From assembly GCA_026396515.1 (NCBI GenBank), contig JAPLWQ010000001.1, positions 564-64,563 of the forward strand: a stretch of DNA of 64,000 nt. The letters run 5' to 3'. The number at the start of each line of letters is the position of its first letter. Position 1 is the first letter of the stretch. This stretch comes from Candidatus Magasanikiibacteriota bacterium (GTDB lineage Bacteria > Patescibacteriota > Patescibacteriia > Magasanikbacterales > GWA2-37-8). Below the pieces are notes generated by a model. It searched no databases. It worked only from the letters and a program-made list of their open reading frames with translations, and was not told the DNA's origin. Below are positions 21,544-58,716 of this stretch, in pieces. The translations under genes and the position numbers were made by a program.

Positions 21544-21603
21544 TTTGCCGCACCTCCTTTGTTTGTTCGTTTTTTACAGGAACACACTGTGAGTGGCTAC
21601 TTG

Positions 21604-21685
21604 TGCCCGAGGAGAGAATCGAACTCTCATGGCCGAAGCCGCACGATTTTGAGTCGTGTTCGTCTACCAATTCCGACACCCGGGC
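21604..21685 (-). tRNA. tRNA-Leu (anticodon CAA), class II with long variable arm
   Basis: Manual fold: acceptor GCCCGGG/CTCGGGC, anticodon loop CTCAAAA, T-arm GAGAG-TTCGATT-CTCTC, variable hairpin. Confidence 0.8.
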
Positions 21686-25699: not shown

Positions 25700-27913
25700 T
25701 TATTTTTTTGCCGGGCATTCCTTGTTTGAACAAACCGTGCTTCCTTTTTTACCGAATACCATTGGCTTTTTGCACGTCGTGCAGGCCTCACCATTCGGGC
25801 GGTCCCATAGAGCGAAGTCGCAATCCGGGTATCGGTTGCAGCCGTAAAATTTCTTACCGCGCTTGGTTTTTCTTTCAATGATTTCTCCAGTACCGCATTT
25901 TGGGCATTTTAGGTTCAGCTTGATTTCAATATTTTTAATATTTTTACATTTCGGGTAAGCGCTGCAGCTGATAAACGGACCGAAACGGCCGATTTTTCTC
26001 ACCATCGGAGCACCGCATTTGTCGCAGGCTTCATTGATTGGCTCTGCAGCCGGGGAAGCTTCTGCGCCCTCTTCTCCCGGTAATGGTTTTGTGTTTTTAC
26101 ATTTCGGATAGCCGGAGCAGGCCATAAATTTACCAAATCTGCCAACCTTGATAACCATCGGGGAACCGCATTTGTCGCAGACCTCGTCTGTTTTTTCCTC
26201 GGTCAATTCCTTTTTTGACAATTCTTTATCCTTAATTATAAGATTGTCCTTAAATGGCTTATAAAAATCAGCAATTATCGGTTGCCACTTTTTTTCGCCA
26301 TCGGCGATCTGGTCCAAATCTTCTTCCATCTGCGCGGTAAATTTAAAGTCAACGATATTGGGGAAGTGAGCGACCAGTAAATCATTTACCAGATAAGCGA
26401 TTTCGCGCGGAAAAAGTTTTTTCTTTTCGTCGCGCTCAACGTAGCCGCGGTCTTCAATGGTGGCGATGGTTGGAGCGTATGTGGAAGGGCGGCCAATACC
26501 GAATTCTTCCAACGCCTTTACCAGCGTTGCATCCGAATATCGTCCCGGCGGTTCGGTAAAATGCTGTTCCGGCTTTAGTTCCTTACAGTCTACTGCGGCG
26601 CCATTTTCAACTTTCGGCAAAAGATTTTCTTTGGTTTTTTCCGGGTACAATTTTAAAAATCCTTCAAACACAATATTTTGCCCGTTGGCGCGGAATGTAT
26701 AATTATTTTTTGATTCAATGTCAATGACGGCGTTATTTATTTTTGCCGGCGCCATTTGTGTAGCGAGCGCCCGGCGCCAAATGAGATCGTATAGTCTGTA
26801 TTGGTGGCTATCCAAAAAATCTTTTATTGTTTCCGGATCGCGGGCCGCTTCGGTTGGCCTGACCGCTTCATGAGCTTCCTGCGCATTTTTGCTTTTTGTT
26901 TTGAAAACGCGCGCTTCGCCGTTGTAATATTTTTCGCCAAACTCGCCGGAGATAGCAGTTTTTGCATCTTGCAGAAATTTTTCCGATAAATTCATTGAGT
27001 CCGTGCGCATGTAAGTGATTAAACCGACAGAACCTTCGGGCCCGAGCTCAACACCCTCGTATAATTGCTGAGCTACACGCATGGTTTGTTTTGCCGAAAA
27101 TCCCAAGCGGTGGTTAGCTTCCTGCTGCAGAGTGGAAGTGGTAAATGGAGGAGAGGGTTGGCGACTGGTCAGTTTTTCTTCGGTATTGGAAATCGCGTAA
27201 GATGCTCCTTTAAGGTCAGCCAATATTACATCAACAGCCGCTTGGTTTTTTAAATCCATTTTATCCAGCTTGCCTTTTGGCGTGGAGGTAAGTTTAGCGG
27301 CGAACGGATCTGTTTTTGCGGCGGAAAATTCCCCCTCAACGGACCAGTATTCTTCATGATTGAAATTTTTTATTTCACGCTCTCGCTCAACAACCAGCCG
27401 AACTGCCACTGATTGTACGCGTCCGGCCGATAGTCCTTTGGCAATTTTACGCCAGAGAAAAGGGGATAATTCGTAGCCGACCAAGCGGTCAAGAACACGG
27501 CGCGCTTGTTGCGCGTCCACCATTTTCATATCAAGTTTACGCGGGTTCTCCAGCGCTTTTTCAATGGCGTCCTTGGTAATTTCATGAAATGCAATACGGC
27601 TGACTTTTTTCGGATCAATGCCAAGCACAATTGAAAGATGCCAAGAGATAGCTTCGCCTTCGCGGTCCTCATCAGTTGCGAATAAGACCTTATCAACTTT
27701 AGCCGCCGCTGTTTTCAACTCTTTAACTATTTTCATTTTTTCCCGGCTGACCGTATATTGCGGTTCAAAATTATTTTCAATATCAATACCAAGTTCGCGT
27801 TTCGGTAGGTCGCGAATATGGCCAAATGAAGATTTGACCACATACTTGCTGCCAAGATATTTGGATATTGTTTTGGCTTTTGCCGGAGACTCAACGATTA
27901 CAAGTGTTTTCAT
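25700..27913 (-). CDS. topA: DNA topoisomerase I with C-terminal zinc ribbons
   Basis: TOPRIM N-terminus MKTLVIVESPAKAK. Three C-terminal C4 ribbons. Confidence 0.95.
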   Translation of the reverse strand: MKTLVIVESPAKAKTISKYLGSKYVVKSSFGHIRDLPKRELGIDIENNFEPQYTVSREKMKIVKELKTAAAKVDKVLFATDEDREGEAISWHLSIVLGIDPKKVSRIAFHEITKDAIEKALENPRKLDMKMVDAQQARRVLDRLVGYELSPFLWRKIAKGLSAGRVQSVAVRLVVEREREIKNFNHEEYWSVEGEFSAAKTDPFAAKLTSTPKGKLDKMDLKNQAAVDVILADLKGASYAISNTEEKLTSRQPSPPFTTSTLQQEANHRLGFSAKQTMRVAQQLYEGVELGPEGSVGLITYMRTDSMNLSEKFLQDAKTAISGEFGEKYYNGEARVFKTKSKNAQEAHEAVRPTEAARDPETIKDFLDSHQYRLYDLIWRRALATQMAPAKINNAVIDIESKNNYTFRANGQNIVFEGFLKLYPEKTKENLLPKVENGAAVDCKELKPEQHFTEPPGRYSDATLVKALEEFGIGRPSTYAPTIATIEDRGYVERDEKKKLFPREIAYLVNDLLVAHFPNIVDFKFTAQMEEDLDQIADGEKKWQPIIADFYKPFKDNLIIKDKELSKKELTEEKTDEVCDKCGSPMVIKVGRFGKFMACSGYPKCKNTKPLPGEEGAEASPAAEPINEACDKCGAPMVRKIGRFGPFISCSAYPKCKNIKNIEIKLNLKCPKCGTGEIIERKTKRGKKFYGCNRYPDCDFALWDRPNGEACTTCKKPMVFGKKGSTVCSNKECPAKK

Positions 27914-27985
27914 AAGCGAAAGCAGGTGAGTAGAATGTCCGTAGAAGGCGGATATTTCCGAGCAGAGGAGTTCATATATGATCTT
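27914..27985 (-). promoter_or_regulatory. conserved 5'-leader element, copy A (topA)
   Basis: About 70 nt immediately upstream of the topA ATG. About 85% identical to the sequence upstream of the dprA ATG (29149-29220). Contains an imperfect hairpin. Confidence 0.5.
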
Positions 27986-28028
27986 TCGGCCTTTGCCGCA
28001 GGGTCAATATATATGTTTGATGCCCATT

Positions 28029-28058
28029 ATATTAGCCGAGAGGGGAGAATATGTCAAA
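28029..28058 (-). promoter_or_regulatory. sigma70-like promoter for topA (TTGACA-18-TAATAT on the minus strand)
   Basis: Sense strand tttgacatattctcccctctcggctaatataatg, about 110 nt upstream of the topA ATG. Confidence 0.45.
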
Positions 28059-28065
28059 TTTAGCC

Positions 28066-29148
28066 CTATACTTTTATATAACTCGCATTTCCAATTCCCT
28101 TAGCCAGCCCTTTTATTTCCAGCATTGATAATGCAGAGCTTACCTCATTTCCCGGCCTGCCGGAATCCGCCGCAATTCTATCAATGGTTTTCGCTTCAGA
28201 GCTTAAAATTTGATAGATGGCCGACTGGTCGGGCGGCAATTCTGACTGGATTGCTTCGTTAGGCCTTTTTTCAAAAACAATCGCTATATTTAATGTTTCC
28301 AAAACGTCAGATGCTTCGCTTACCAATCGTGCACCTTGTTTAATTAGCCGGTTGTTACCTTCCCCGTTTATTACGCCTATCGGATGTGGTACGGCCAAAA
28401 CTTCTCGGTTATAGTCCAAAGCCATCCGGGCGGTGATAAGCGCACCCGACCCCTCGGGCGCTTCAATAACCAAAGTGCCCAGCGTCAGACCGGCAATAAT
28501 ACGGTTGCGGGCGGGAAATGTATATGGTGTCGGTTTGAAACCAGGAGGATACTCGGAAACAATCGCACCGCCGGAAGCAATGATGCGCTCGGAAAGAGAA
28601 CGGTGGCTGGCCGGATACAAAGTATTGCGGTCAATGCCGCCGCCAAGCACGGCGACAGTTATGCCGCCAACTTTCAGTGTTTCTTCGTGAGCTAAACCGT
28701 CAAGCCCAAGAGCGAGACCGCTCACAATAATCATGCCGGACTTAGCGAGGGGTGGTACAATCGCCGCGCAGGCGGCTGCGCCATATGGTGAAATTCTTCG
28801 CGTGCCTACCACACCCAGCGACGGACAACTTTCATCTGGCAGTGTTCCGCGCACAAAAATAGTATATGGCGGGTCGGAAATTTGTTTGAGCAGTACAGGG
28901 TAGGCCGGCTCGTCAATCGACACAGGCCAAATGCCTTCCTGCTCCAGAATAACAGCGGCTTTTTCGGCGGGGAAATTTTCGCGCCAGCTGACAAATTCAT
29001 GAGCCACGCCATCTTCCCAGCCGGCTTGGACCAAATCGCTGAATTCAGCTGCTCCAATTTGTGAATAGTCGGAAAAATAATCCGCCAGTTGTTTCAACCG
29101 GCGGTTAGTTATTTTTGGGAAGAAAGAGAAATTAACCAGTGGGTTCAT
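28066..29148 (-). CDS. dprA: DNA processing protein DprA (Smf)
   Basis: Rossmann-like DprA core GVVGTRRISPYG...LGLDG. Start taken at ATG 29148 because the region upstream matches the noncoding topA leader. The ORF track extends to 29256 with a TTG start. Confidence 0.8.
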   Translation of the reverse strand: MNPLVNFSFFPKITNRRLKQLADYFSDYSQIGAAEFSDLVQAGWEDGVAHEFVSWRENFPAEKAAVILEQEGIWPVSIDEPAYPVLLKQISDPPYTIFVRGTLPDESCPSLGVVGTRRISPYGAAACAAIVPPLAKSGMIIVSGLALGLDGLAHEETLKVGGITVAVLGGGIDRNTLYPASHRSLSERIIASGGAIVSEYPPGFKPTPYTFPARNRIIAGLTLGTLVIEAPEGSGALITARMALDYNREVLAVPHPIGVINGEGNNRLIKQGARLVSEASDVLETLNIAIVFEKRPNEAIQSELPPDQSAIYQILSSEAKTIDRIAADSGRPGNEVSSALSMLEIKGLAKGIGNASYIKV

Positions 29149-29220
29149 AAGCGAACGCAGGTGAGCGAAATATCCGCTAACGGCGGATATTTCCGAGCCA
29201 AGGAGGTAATATATGCCGCA
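29149..29220 (-). promoter_or_regulatory. conserved 5'-leader element, copy B (dprA), with 12-bp perfect hairpin
   Basis: cggaaatatccgc/gcggatatttcg inverted repeat. Paralogous to 27914-27985. Confidence 0.5.
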
Positions 29221-29294
29221 GCACGATTCCACGGCAGCCTCATAGATTAAATTCAATAATTTTTTTTACTGTGCGGATCCGGTTGTGTAGGTAT

Positions 29295-29819
29295 CTATAG
29301 CGACTGCAAAAGTTTATCGGTCGCGTCCGGTAATATTTCATCAAGTTTTTGTTTTTCATTTTTTGAGATTTTTCCAAGCACGTAATCGGCCGTATCAGAA
29401 ATTTGTTTTAATGGCTTAATACCGAGGCGAAGACGGAAAAAATTTTGTGTTCCCAGATGATCAATAATTGATTGCACACCGTTGTGTCCGGCCGAAGACC
29501 GGTTAAACTGTATTTTGTATTCACCCAAAGCAATATCTTTGTCATCGTGCGCCACAATAATATCCGACGGTTTAATTTTGAAAAAATTAATTATAGCTTG
29601 TACGCTTTTTCCAGATTCATTCATAAAAGTCAGCGGTTTAGCAAGAATAATTTTCTTTCTTCCGATTTTTGCTTCGGCTATTTCCGCGTTGAATTTTTTG
29701 TTATTACTAAAAGAAACTCCGAATTTTCCGGCCATCATATTGGCGGCGATAAATCCGACGTTGTGGCGTGTGTCTGAATATTCGACGCCTGGGTTGCCTA
29801 AACCAACTACAAGTTTCAT
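29295..29819 (-). CDS. pth: peptidyl-tRNA hydrolase
   Basis: VGLGNPG..Y..TRHNVGF Pth motifs. Confidence 0.92.
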   Translation of the reverse strand: MKLVVGLGNPGVEYSDTRHNVGFIAANMMAGKFGVSFSNNKKFNAEIAEAKIGRKKIILAKPLTFMNESGKSVQAIINFFKIKPSDIIVAHDDKDIALGEYKIQFNRSSAGHNGVQSIIDHLGTQNFFRLRLGIKPLKQISDTADYVLGKISKNEKQKLDEILPDATDKLLQSL

Positions 29820-33048: not shown

Positions 33049-33124
33049 GGCCACTTGGCTCAGTTGGTTAGAGCGCTTCGTTCACATCGAAGAGGCCACA
33101 GGTTCGAGTCCTGTAGTGGCCACC
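33049..33124 (+). tRNA. tRNA-Val (anticodon CAC)
   Basis: Manual cloverleaf: acceptor GGCCACT/AGTGGCC, anticodon loop TTCACAT, T-arm ACAGG-TTCGAGT-CCTGT. Confidence 0.75.
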
Positions 33125-34593: not shown

Positions 34594-36420
34594 ATGAAAA
34601 CACTGTCCGGTTTCGCCGCCATGTTTGCAGCCATGTTCTTCGCGGGCAACTTGCTCGCGGCCGAAGGCGGGAACGCCGCGGCCGGCAACTTGCCCTTCGA
34701 TCTCGGGGGGCTCTTCATTCCGGTCATCGTCGTGGTCTGCGTGCTCGCTATCCTCATCGCCCTCTCGCTCTTCCTGCGGAATTACATCAAGGTTCCGCCG
34801 AACCAGGTGGCGGTCATCTCTGGACGGAAACACAGGCTCGACACCGGCGAGGCAATCGGGTTCAGACTCGTCCGCGGCGGCGCCACCTTCAAGTGGCCAT
34901 TGCTCGAACGGGTCGACTATCTCGATCTCGGAGTGCTGAGCATCCCGGTGCAGATCAAGAAGGCAATCACCAAAGAAGGTGTGCCGCTCAACGTGGCCGC
35001 CATTGCCAACGTCAAGTTCGGTAGCGACGATGTGTCGCTGCGCAACGGCGCTGAGCGGTTCCTGGGTATGAGCCCGGGAGCGATGCGGGAAATCATTCTC
35101 AATACGCTCGAGGGGCATTTGCGTTCGATCTGCTGCACCCTGAAGGTGGAGGAGATCAACAGTGATCGCCAGAAGTTCGCCCAACAGATGGTGAGCGAAG
35201 CGGCGGTCGACTTGGGGCGTTTGGGCTTCGTAATTGATGCCCTGGTCGTCCAGCACATCGAGGACGAGCAGCAATACCTCAACTCCCTCGGCCTCAAGCG
35301 TACGGCCGAGGTCAAACGTGACGCGAAGATCGGCGAAGCCGAAGCGACGCGCGACGCGGACATCAGGACGGCGGAAGCGACGCGCACCGCAACGATTGAA
35401 TCGACCAACGCCCAGCGCGAAGGCGCGGTGGCCAAGAACGAAAACCTGGCCAAGATCGCCGCGGCCGAGCGCGACCTCAAGACGAAGGAGGCGGGATTCG
35501 CCGCCGAAGTCGCTCAAGCCGAAGCCACGCGCGACCAAGCCGGTCCCAAGGCCAAGGCCTTGGCCGAGAAGGATGTGCTCGTCGCCCAGGTCGCGGCCCA
35601 AGAGGCCAAGGCCTTGGCGGAAATCTCTCTCCAGCAGAAGCTGGCCGAGCGCAAGAAGGCCGAGCTCAACGCCACGGTGATCCAGGGTGCTGAAGCCGAA
35701 AAGCAGAAGCAGGTCATCGAGGCGGAAGCCGCGGCCGCGGCCGCGGTGAAGCGGGCAGAAGGCGCGCGCGACGCCGCGGTCAGGACGGCCGAGGGTCAGC
35801 GCGATGTCGCCATCCGCGAAGGCGAAGGCGAGGCCTCCAAGACCAAGGCGGTTGGCCTGGCAGAAGCTGATGCCAACAAGGCAAAGTTGCTCGCCCAGGC
35901 AGAAGGCGAGGCCGCCAAGGTCCGCCAGATGGGTCTGGCCGAGGGCGAGGCCATCCAGGCCAAGCTGCTGGCCGAGGCCGCCGGCGTGCTCAAGAAGGCC
36001 GAGGCCTATCAGAAGCTCGACGAGGCAGGCAAGTTCATGTTCATCCTCGAGAAGGCCCCGCAGATCATCGAGGCGCTCGGCGACGCTGCCTCCAAGGCCC
36101 TTACCCCGGCGTTCGATGCCGTTGGGCGCGGGCTGGCCAACGTGGACAACATCACCATCGTCGACACCGGGTCGGGGGATGGCAAATCGGCGGTCGGGCG
36201 CTTCGCCAATACCGCCCCCACGATTTTCTTCGAGTTCATGCAGAAGGCGAAGGCCCTGGGGATCGACCCGACCGATCTGCTCAAGAAGGTCGGTGTCAAG
36301 GTGATCCCCGGTTCGGCAGCGTTCGGCGCTCTCGACACCGGAGGACAGGACGAGGCGGCATCACCCGCCGCAGACGCCGCCGCCGGCAAGCCGCCGGCTG
36401 ACGCGCCGGCCAAGAAGTAG
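34594..36420 (+). CDS. floT: flotillin (FloT/YuaG-type SPFH/Band-7 protein); GC-rich
   Basis: aaaaaggagaaaacag SD. N-terminal TM. SPFH domain with the LEGHLRSI motif. Long EA-repeat coiled coil. C-terminal ITIVDTGSGDG. Collinear with B. subtilis FloT. Confidence 0.88.
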   Translation: MKTLSGFAAMFAAMFFAGNLLAAEGGNAAAGNLPFDLGGLFIPVIVVVCVLAILIALSLFLRNYIKVPPNQVAVISGRKHRLDTGEAIGFRLVRGGATFKWPLLERVDYLDLGVLSIPVQIKKAITKEGVPLNVAAIANVKFGSDDVSLRNGAERFLGMSPGAMREIILNTLEGHLRSICCTLKVEEINSDRQKFAQQMVSEAAVDLGRLGFVIDALVVQHIEDEQQYLNSLGLKRTAEVKRDAKIGEAEATRDADIRTAEATRTATIESTNAQREGAVAKNENLAKIAAAERDLKTKEAGFAAEVAQAEATRDQAGPKAKALAEKDVLVAQVAAQEAKALAEISLQQKLAERKKAELNATVIQGAEAEKQKQVIEAEAAAAAAVKRAEGARDAAVRTAEGQRDVAIREGEGEASKTKAVGLAEADANKAKLLAQAEGEAAKVRQMGLAEGEAIQAKLLAEAAGVLKKAEAYQKLDEAGKFMFILEKAPQIIEALGDAASKALTPAFDAVGRGLANVDNITIVDTGSGDGKSAVGRFANTAPTIFFEFMQKAKALGIDPTDLLKKVGVKVIPGSAAFGALDTGGQDEAASPAADAAAGKPPADAPAKK

Positions 36421-56782: not shown

Positions 56783-57169
56783 ATGATAGAAAATTCAAAA
56801 GACATTTTATACATCGTTATTTCTTTCTGTATTATTTGGGCAACTGTGTTTCTTTGCTGGATGTTTTATTACGCCGGGAGAATATTAAAAAATACCAATC
56901 AGATTATTGAAGAATTTCGCGTGCGTTTGCAGGCATTATCCGAGGCGATTAGCTATATTCAGGAAAAAGTTGAGAGTATGTCATTTTTAATGAGCACGGC
57001 GATGAAAGGGGCGGGTACGGCGGTGAAGGATATAATAAAATCAAAGGCCAAGACATGGATGGAAAAAAAATCGGACGATTTTAACCGGACAGCGAAAGAA
57101 GCGGTAGATAAAGCAGTAGATGCAACTGCCGCCGGTATGAAGAAAGCGGCAAATAGAATAAAGAAATAA
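56783..57169 (+). CDS. hypothetical small membrane protein (128 aa)
   Basis: One TM plus helical Lys/Ala-rich C-terminus. Followed by repeated terminator copy 2. Confidence 0.5.
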   Translation: MIENSKDILYIVISFCIIWATVFLCWMFYYAGRILKNTNQIIEEFRVRLQALSEAISYIQEKVESMSFLMSTAMKGAGTAVKDIIKSKAKTWMEKKSDDFNRTAKEAVDKAVDATAAGMKKAANRIKK

Positions 57170-57171
57170 AA

Positions 57172-57202
57172 AAAATCCTCAGCCCTGGGCTGAGGATTTT
57201 TT
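57172..57202. terminator. Rho-independent terminator, copy 2 of the repeat at 46..76
   Basis: aaaaaaaatcctcagccctgggctgaggattttttt. Confidence 0.6.
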
Positions 57203-58716
57203 TAATCGATAAGTTTGAGCAAATAATTGTCAGTCGGCGCGAAGTCATCGGTGAGAACAGGCAAATCATCGCCAATTGGTTTTATCCAGCGATAACTTAG
57301 AAGCGTGGCCATTTGAGCATCATCGCTGTTCCAATCGACACGCGGTTTTTTCATAGCGACAATTATCAAGTTTTGAACCCGAAATCCGCTGTCCGTCTTT
57401 CTTACTGTGAATAATTGGACATCGGGGAAAACAGATTTATATGTTTTGTATTCCGCCCGAAGGAATTCACCCTTATCGCCGTCGATGGCAGAAATAATAT
57501 TTACAAGAGCAATGCCGTCGTCGCTTAAACTGTTATACATTTTTTCAACTGCTTCTTTGGTGGTTAGCTGGTGTGGCGGCGAAAATGATTTAAAAGCGTC
57601 GCCGAAAATCAGATCAAATTTTTCTTCATTACGGTTTAAAAATACTCGGCCGTCCTCATGAACAATTCTTATGCGGGGGTCGTCGGTCAAACGAAAATAT
57701 TTTTTTGCTAATTCGGTTATTTTCGGGTCAATTTCCGCTACGGTCATTTTTGTGCCGGAGGTTGTTTGTAGAAAATGGCGCGGATAGGTATAGGCGGCGC
57801 CGCCGATCATCAGCGCGTTTTTTGCGTCCGGATTCAGATATTTGTGTAAATCAAAAAATTTTGTGTATTCAAAAACCAGATCGTCGCCGTCTAAAAACAT
57901 GCCGGATTGAGTGGAGAAATTATCGGTTCTCAAAAATCTTGCCTCGCGGTTTGTATCTTGATATTCTCCGTCGAATATTTGTATTCGTTGATACGCTGAA
58001 TCAGTGTCCACCAGACCCCTTTGCGCTGCGAATATTTGTATAGCTGAAGAAAAGGAGCCAAAGCAAATCAAAATTACTATTGTAGTGATTTTTGCCTTTA
58101 ATTCAGCTTTGCTGAATGAGGCGATTGAAACAACTATCAGTGAAATCGCTAAAATATAAAGAATCTTTGTCGTGCCGAATGTGGCGAGAAGATAAAAACC
58201 GGCCAGGAATGTGCCGAAAATACTGCCCAAAGTTGAAATGGCATACAGATTGCCGACGGTTTTCCCGGAGTTTTGAACGTCATGGATTTTTAGCCTTACC
58301 GCGTATGGTGATACCATGCCGAGCATTAAGCTGGCCGGGACAAATAGAATGCAGGTTGAAACAATAGAGTTTGTTCTGATGTTTTTTATTATTTCCTGAA
58401 GTGTGATGAGTATCGGTTCTTTAAAAATTGCTGTCAGACCGATAAAAATGGCAGCTAAAAAAATTATGCCGGAAAAAGTTTTCCAGTTGGGCAATTTATC
58501 GGCGATTTTTCCGCCCCACCAATAGCCAAAACTCAAAGCGCCGAGAATTAAACCGATTAAACTGGACCAGACAATCAGTGATGTGCCAAGATATGGCGCC
58601 ATGACGCGTGAACCGGCAAGTTCAAGGATCATCACTACTGCGCCACAAATAAAAACGATTATTTCCAATAGATACTTTTTCATAAAAATGTGATTATTGT
58701 GATGTAATTCTATCAA
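57202..58716 (-). CDS. spermidine synthase-like aminopropyltransferase fused to an N-terminal multi-TM domain
   Basis: About 7 TM helices, then a PABS-like domain (MIGGAAYT, DLIFGDAF). Confidence 0.55.
   Translation of the reverse strand: MIELHHNNHIFMKKYLLEIIVFICGAVVMILELAGSRVMAPYLGTSLIVWSSLIGLILGALSFGYWWGGKIADKLPNWKTFSGIIFLAAIFIGLTAIFKEPILITLQEIIKNIRTNSIVSTCILFVPASLMLGMVSPYAVRLKIHDVQNSGKTVGNLYAISTLGSIFGTFLAGFYLLATFGTTKILYILAISLIVVSIASFSKAELKAKITTIVILICFGSFSSAIQIFAAQRGLVDTDSAYQRIQIFDGEYQDTNREARFLRTDNFSTQSGMFLDGDDLVFEYTKFFDLHKYLNPDAKNALMIGGAAYTYPRHFLQTTSGTKMTVAEIDPKITELAKKYFRLTDDPRIRIVHEDGRVFLNRNEEKFDLIFGDAFKSFSPPHQLTTKEAVEKMYNSLSDDGIALVNIISAIDGDKGEFLRAEYKTYKSVFPDVQLFTVRKTDSGFRVQNLIIVAMKKPRVDWNSDDAQMATLLSYRWIKPIGDDLPVLTDDFAPTDNYLLKLID

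Follow-up and report, generated by a model that had tools for sequence, protein, structure and literature searches.

Copies of a small PATE-like insertion element most likely form the repeated leaders of topA and dprA in a Magasanikbacteria-like member of the Patescibacteria

Why do two neighbouring genes carry nearly the same sequence directly before their start codons? The question is raised by a 64,000-nucleotide (nt) stretch of contig JAPLWQ010000001.1 (positions 564 to 64,563 of the forward strand; hereafter the window), in which the minus-strand genes topA and dprA each have a copy of one repeat adjoining their ATG. The original prediction, made from the letters of the window, took these leaders for a shared cis-regulatory RNA or operator that coordinates both genes. 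We propose that the two leaders are most likely copies of a non-coding insertion element of about 95-110 nt, which belongs to Magasanikbacteria-like Patescibacteria and resembles the palindrome-associated transposable elements (PATEs). PATEs are non-autonomous derivatives of the IS200/IS605 family of insertion sequences (IS), for example the HqIRS families of Haloquadratum walsbyi. That the repeat is a mobile insertion element rather than a regulatory leader of the host is probable; that it moves by an IS200/IS605-like mechanism is put forward tentatively, as a possibility somewhat short of even.

A repeat search of the window aligned positions 27900-27980 with 29135-29215 at 80% identity over 81 nt, and local blastn of the regions upstream of the two genes gave 65 identical positions out of 81 (E = 9e-18). 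A 17-mer and a 20-mer from the core of the repeat occur at these two places only in the 64 kb, and shuffled sequences gave a mean of 0-0.33 matches; the repeat is far beyond chance. Both searches therefore find it where it had been predicted, with the identity of about 85% claimed for the leaders corrected to 80-81%. The final 14 nt of the match are coding sequence (ATGAAAACACTTGT versus ATGAACCCACTGGT). Since dprA orthologues that have no element already start with ATGAAYCC.YT.GT, this part reflects an old similarity of the N-termini (MKTLV and MNPLV). The repeat proper, as delimited by covariance-model matches, has 67 nt (27914-27980 and 29149-29215) and is 81% identical between the two copies. 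The arrangement is not an assembly artefact: L016, a Logan assembly made independently, has the same sequence throughout the 1.5 kb compared (27851-29350 of the window). The matching Logan contig stops within the window.

The pth-dprA-topA region was compared in seven relatives (L001, L003, L005, L006, L013, L014 and L015), whose DprA proteins are from 79% to 55% identical to that of the window. The pth gene overlaps dprA by 4 nt (ATGA) in all of these except L015, where the two are directly adjacent; in the window, the pth stop is separated from the dprA ATG by 146 nt. On the plus strand, 150 nt (29149-29298) have come to lie within the ancestral junction of GGGTTCAT with AGCGACTG, and their final bases give pth a new stop, TAG, where the ATGA overlap had provided TGA. 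This junction (site B) is filled only in the window and in the identical strain L016, and it is empty in the seven relatives. Judged from these loci, the dprA copy is specific to the lineage of the window.

The leader of topA (site A) gives a similar picture. Its promoter, TTGACA-17-TAATAT, is common to all eight loci. In L005, L013, L014 and L015 the topA ATG follows this promoter by about 25-30 nt with no element in between, and in the window, L001 and L003 the leader has about 100 extra nt that include the repeat. The leader of L006 has about 65 extra nt that are only loosely repeat-like and may be a diverged copy. Site A is therefore filled in the window, L001, L003 and perhaps L006, and empty in four of the seven relatives, by which the topA copy is confined, as far as these loci reach, to the closest relatives. 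Over the 67-nt core, copy A is 79% identical to the copy of L003 and 63% identical to that of L001; copy B is 81% identical to copy A.

A third site was found in a different gene context. An exact-pattern scan of the GTDB species genomes with CTCACCTGCNTTCGCTTAT gave one true match, in the Magasanikbacteria metagenome-assembled genome L009, and four chance matches. In L009, the element (site C) lies between a promoter, TGATATAAT, and the ATG of a gene for a membrane protein with thrombospondin type 3 repeats, a start that is backed by homologues beginning MAEEN, MADEK or MATEN. The copy is reversed in relation to its gene, the strand that is antisense to topA and dprA being here the sense strand. 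The promoter and the start codon recur in L020 and L017 with no element, and the comparison with them places L009 6328-6438 in a precise alignment gap of 111 nt (108 nt and a possible TAT duplication) between AATCTAT and GGC. Insertion is thus observed at three independent sites, each with filled and empty states and with sharp boundaries, which is the signature of an insertion element. One homologue of the membrane protein, P0122, reaches 273 amino acids (aa) through an internal duplication of about 55 residues (..EELISSPEQ.R..LL.AGVEQSV.DKISD..) and not through an N-terminal extension.

The copies share a common anatomy, which is described here on E+, the element as read on the plus strand of the window. 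All begin with AAGCGAAMGCAGGTGAG, followed by a hairpin (P2), a purine-rich stretch (GAGGAG or GAAGAG), ATATATG or TAAATG, a second hairpin (P1) and an end in YAT. Their lengths are 101 nt for copy A and for L003, 98 nt for L001, 108 nt for L009 and 95 nt for copy B. The limits of copy A were taken from the alignment with the four loci that have no element and with L001 and L003, together with the matches of a hidden Markov model and of the covariance model; these limits presume no target duplication, and a 2-nt duplication of AT would shift them by 2 nt. In the insertion at site B, homology with the other copies is limited to 29149-29243 (95 nt). The remaining 55 nt (29244-29298), which end in TCTAT, gave no significant match in the window or in any locus compared, including the flank of copy A. 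They may have come along with the element from the flank of its donor; as they do not match the flank of copy A, the donor was probably another copy. The same 55 nt contain a GGATCC and a run of eight A on the minus strand, and their TCTAT end looks like a second right end.

P2 stands 17-18 nt from the left end, with an outer GAAAT...ATTTC and a variable inner stem. On E+, 48 of 49 cells of the five-copy alignment of its pairs hold standard pairs, and four of the ten pairs have changed on both sides. Values of pairing and double change as high as these came up in just 2 of 500 column shuffles, and sliding the partner columns gives 21-51% pairing. On the strand of the topA and dprA mRNAs, 41 of 50 cells are paired (82%, versus 98% on E+). 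The eight wobble cells, three of them in copy A, all read G.U on E+ and hence A.C on the mRNA strand, with none the other way round; these cells partly share ancestry, and at least five independent events were counted. In six of six copies, moreover, the more stable fold of the complete repeat is that of E+. The better pairing on E+ points to a structure that is maintained on the strand antisense to topA and dprA. The prediction that the hairpin is perfect in the dprA copy (11-12 bp) and imperfect in the topA copy (10 bp) holds. P1 is found near the right end of every copy, from a few to about 16 nt from it, differs in sequence in each copy and, unlike P2, has no strand preference.

No terminal inverted repeats were detected in the six versions of the element when the first 30 nt were compared with the reverse complement of the last 30 nt (p = 0.15-0.99 against shuffles), and six-frame translations of the copies gave no conserved open reading frame (ORF). 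At 95-108 nt, the element is too short for a transposase. A consensus scan found no internal promoter that is conserved on either strand, the weak matches differing between copies. Rfam gave no match to the repeat at gathering thresholds over the window, and a search of 27800-29400 up to E = 10 gave only three chance-level matches, all outside the repeat. The plus-strand mini-ORFs of the two copies are, as had been stated, unrelated past the repeat, and no frame is protein-like. An antisense small protein was considered and rejected: the open antisense frame differs between the copies at 8 of 24 residues and diverges fully after the repeat.

The sites have a common feature on the 5' side of E+, which is TTCAT at copies A and B and TCTAT at site C. 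The motif thus precedes the left end on the very strand on which the hairpin pairs better. Read in reverse complement, TTCAT gives ATGAA, which would account for the position of the copies at start codons. At the L009 site, the gene's own strand carries the motif, and its ATG is restored by the AT that ends the element. The IS200/IS605 family prefers the lagging-strand template. The plus strand has a positive GC skew throughout the window, by which E+ would lie on that template (n = 2).

From these features we infer the following course. A Y1 transposase, provided in trans, would recognise the hairpins near the two ends on one DNA strand, as for PATEs derived from IS200/IS605, and a single strand would be inserted 3' of the pentanucleotide target with no duplication. 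At a gene that begins with Met-Lys or Met-Asn, such an insertion would land exactly against the ATG, in antisense, and leave the ORF intact. The genome hardly uses Shine-Dalgarno (SD) sequences, which is probably why these insertions are tolerated; target preference together with selection in a dense genome of this kind would place the element against start codons. Transcription from the conserved topA promoter presumably runs through copy A and would give topA a leader of about 108 nt, roughly four times the earlier length of about 20-30 nt. Copy B removes the 4-nt overlap of pth with dprA, and with it a presumed translational coupling, so that dprA would be initiated on its own.

The evidence was also weighed against other explanations. 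A host regulatory leader RNA or operator that places topA and dprA under common control is very unlikely. In its favour, the copies adjoin the start codons of two linked genes of DNA metabolism and form part of the mRNAs, copy A lies downstream of a conserved promoter, L001 and L003 conserve the part beside the topA ATG, and the changes in the hairpin are compensatory. However, the motif is absent from seven of seven orthologous loci before dprA and from four of seven before topA, which contradicts the original prediction, and the third copy stands reversed at an unrelated membrane-protein gene. The hairpin is the weaker one on the mRNA strand, and the arms of the palindrome co-vary so that pairing is kept and the sequence of the half-sites is not, which speaks against an operator. 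Rfam holds no matching family. No copy was found at other genes of DNA metabolism in the window (recG, fpg, dnaE and an ORF with KaiC, DnaB_C and Lon_C domains that is read here as radA). The remaining arguments of the prediction are ordinary properties of this genome. It is correct that neither ATG is preceded by an SD sequence, which is not special to topA and dprA: an SD-like motif occurs within 30 nt of the start in only about 5 of the 59 genes of the window. A leader that carries anti-SD strings or sequesters an SD sequence is ruled out, the whole genome being without SD and CCTCC strings being ordinary here.

That the topA leader was copied before dprA in a one-off local duplication, through illegitimate recombination or template switching at the shared microhomology TCGCT(T)ATGAA and with no transposition machinery, is improbable. 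The ancestral pth/dprA junction (..TCGCTATGAACCCACTGG) does closely resemble the end of the topA leader with the topA start (..TCGCTTATGAAAACACTTG), copy B is nearest to copy A, and the two sites are just 1.2 kb apart. On the other hand, such an event leaves the precise insertion at the third, unrelated site in L009 unexplained; copies A and B differ altogether in their right halves (P1), and the 55 extra nt of copy B match nothing near topA. Moreover, A and B are as diverged (81%) as A and its orthologue in L003 (79%), though B is the younger. Equally hard to credit is a miniature inverted-repeat transposable element (MITE) moved by a DDE transposase, with a 2-bp duplication of AT and a YTATGR target entered in either orientation. 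The three sites are compatible with a duplicated AT of the start codon (TT[AT]G, CT[AT]G and CT[AT]G in gene sense), and the orientation to the gene does differ between sites. This explanation meets the lack of terminal inverted repeats and leaves the strand-specific hairpin unexplained, and with a TA duplication of the IS630/Tc1 type the left ends would disagree by 2 nt between sites.

Several observations weigh against a mobile PATE-like element. In a search with nhmmer and the covariance model, the window and the loci (about 160 kb) held no further copies beyond the three sites; two copies in 64 kb and one in the 8 kb of L009 fall short of a multi-copy family. Domain searches of 30 ORFs of the window turned up no transposase, and no autonomous partner is known, neither a cognate tnpA nor an IS with matching ends having been seen in the 64 kb and the short pieces of the relatives; the lack of such a cognate and the low apparent copy number are unlike PATEs. 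The empty and filled sites fit no duplication and a 2-nt AT duplication alike. If it is simply selection that confines insertions to start codons, the two TTCAT flanks say little about a target motif, ATGAA being the start of 14 of the 59 genes of the window. The left-end and right-end hairpins of IS200/IS605 elements are usually alike, whereas P1 and P2 are dissimilar. The 5'-terminal 17 nt are the most conserved part of this element, unlike the termini of PATEs, which are variable beyond the palindrome (PMC3119063). Finally, the 55 nt adjoining the topA ATG are 63-79% identical between species whose DprA proteins are 78-79% identical. This is above the expectation for neutral DNA or a decaying selfish copy and hints that the topA copy may serve some function where it stands, although renewed insertion at a hot spot could also account for the conservation.

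The same 63-79% identity beside the topA ATG is the basis of a wider proposal, that of a mobile family which homes to start codons in SD-less Patescibacteria and whose topA copy has been adopted by the host as a long structured leader or as a source of antisense RNA. We consider it unlikely. If it were true, the element would be a portable leader that rewires topA expression and, in the lineage of the window, uncouples dprA from pth.

Searches in larger collections brought no additional copy. The exact pattern used for the GTDB genomes gave one chance match, in a coding region, in the JGI metagenomes and no match in IMG/VR, and blastn of copy B against plasmids and phages gave no match. A six-frame profile of the five copies had no match at E <= 10 among 5.8 billion proteins, and a profile of the two in-frame peptides of the window had none at E <= 0.001 among 1.84 billion representatives; neither search has the power to detect matches of 25 residues. 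The nhmmer and covariance-model search gave one weak match, at L015 7374-7400. This is the intrinsic terminator of topA (ACGTCCGC-AAATA-GCGGATGT-TTTTT), whose resemblance to the core of P2 (TCCGC...GCGGA) is taken as chance.

The insertion also bears on the start of dprA. Nearly all of the best 119 DprA homologues have 357-367 aa, the closest being 55-79% identical to the DprA of the window; they cover 86-91% of a 396-aa query, and none aligns through the TTG extension of the reading frame. This extension runs through DNA that is absent in every relative examined. The lengths of the homologues and the position of the extension within lineage-specific DNA support the predicted ATG at 29148 as the start, and not the TTG. 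Public gene calls run through the element: DprA (P0001, which is the dprA of the window) is called with 388 aa instead of 360, and TopA with 762 aa in L001 (6192-8480) and 752 aa in L003 (3062-5320) instead of 737. The element misleads gene callers because ORFs continue through it, which is of consequence for annotation. The features of the locus are listed in Table 1.

Table 1. Positions of the element copies, their hairpins and flanking motifs, and the adjoining genes in the window
Feature	Positions	Strand	Remarks
TTCAT 5' of copy A	27909..27913	+	Reverse complement of the topA start ATGAA; candidate targeting motif
Copy A	27914..28014	+	101 nt; begins AAGCGAAAGCAGGTGAG; fills almost all of the topA 5' leader
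P2 of copy A	27933..27957	+	GAATGTCCGT / AGAAG / GCGGATATTT; 10 bp, 3 G.U
P1 region of copy A	27974..28014	+	Right-end hairpin; includes the terminal ATATAT
TTCAT 5' of copy B	29144..29148	+	Reverse complement of the dprA start ATGAA; candidate targeting motif
Copy B insertion	29149..29298	+	150 nt; separates dprA from pth
P2 of copy B	29167..29193	+	GAAATATCCGC / TAACG / GCGGATATTTC; perfect 11-bp stem
topA	25700..27913	-	737 aa; start MKTLVIVESPAKAK conserved
topA promoter TTGACA-17-TAATAT	28029..28057	-	Conserved in 8/8 orthologous loci; outside the element
dprA	28066..29148	-	360 aa; start at ATG 29148
pth	29295..29819	-	174 aa; stop is the TAG formed at the insertion end

The DprA homologues place the window in the Patescibacteria, near Candidatus Magasanikbacteria. 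Its gene content is of the housekeeping kind, with a ribosomal protein cluster, parAB, relA/spoT, topA, dprA, pth, der, lytR, recG, the radA-like ORF, clpB, pheST, dnaE and fpg. Many starts in the window stand a few bases after a -10 box of the TAATAT type, which makes the leaders very short or absent. A transfer RNA, tRNA-Leu(CAA), was found by ARAGORN at 21603-21685 and is not in the Rfam scan at gathering thresholds, which reports only the tRNAs at 33049 and 33711. At 35824-35979 there are three tandem coding repeats of 39 nt, rich in Glu, Ala and Lys, within a 608-aa SPFH/Band-7 protein (34594-36420); the GC maximum of the window (0.525) is located there, and the overlapping 560-aa ORF on the opposite strand is probably spurious. 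Two palindromes of the form A-run, GC hairpin, T-run, AAAAAAATCCTCAGCC(T/C)TGGGCTGAGGATTTTTTT, are found 57 kb apart, at 45-79 and 57169-57203, and are identical at 34 of 35 positions; the second lies between convergent genes. They resemble bidirectional terminators, and their near-identity suggests another small repeat family.

The genomes of Patescibacteria are small and dense and, to our knowledge, descriptions of small mobile elements from them are few. The copies at topA and dprA indicate that mobile DNA can persist in reduced genomes in the one place tolerated where no SD sequence is required, directly against a start codon. If the mechanism is of the IS200/IS605 type, the element would be a clean example of a target motif that dictates gene-proximal insertion. 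Effects on expression of the broken pth-dprA overlap and of the longer topA leader are both testable; a new regulatory system is not revealed by the locus.

Among known systems, the element shares with cis-regulatory 5' leader RNAs its location in the 5' untranslated region, before two functionally linked genes, and a conserved hairpin with compensating changes. It differs from them in that it is not conserved at orthologous loci, its orientation to the gene is not fixed, its structure is better on the antisense strand and it matches no Rfam family. Repetitive extragenic palindromes (REPs) and bacterial interspersed mosaic elements (BIMEs), which are mobilised by REP-associated tyrosine transposases (RAYTs), are likewise intergenic imperfect palindromes and are recognised as single-stranded hairpins by HUH Y1 enzymes. 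REPs have 20-40 nt and a GTAG-type head, are very numerous and lie mostly downstream of genes, whereas the present element has about 100 nt, is rare and stands against start codons. Classical bacterial MITEs, such as the Correia elements of Neisseria, RUP and those derived from IS630, have clear terminal inverted repeats and a regular target duplication, of TA or another sequence. Like them, the element is a non-coding intergenic insertion of about 100-150 nt whose presence varies between relatives; a further likeness is that such MITEs are often co-transcribed with their neighbours and able to alter their expression. Unlike them, it has no terminal inverted repeats, and no TA duplication was found.

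The closest resemblance is to PATEs and their IS200/IS605 relatives. The PATEs of Haloquadratum have no inverted terminal repeats, carry near-terminal palindromes, cause no target duplication and are too short for a transposase; they use a targeting sequence of 4-6 nt, and their 5' end stands at a greater distance from its palindrome than the 3' end does (PMC3119063). The present element likewise has no terminal inverted repeats and no ORF, its copies are heterogeneous and its structure is strand-specific. It has a hairpin near each end, of which the 5' one is further in, and the right-end hairpin varies in sequence with no strand bias. IS200/IS605 elements have palindromic ends, near the termini of the top strand, and 5' of the left end a transposon-adjacent motif; in Geobacillus stearothermophilus these motifs are TTCAT for ISGst5 and TTTAT for ISGst2, and PATE-like derivatives are present (PMC10055086). 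In the same manner, the element described here lies 3' of a T-rich pentanucleotide in a fixed orientation at its three sites, two of which are perhaps biased by the start codon.

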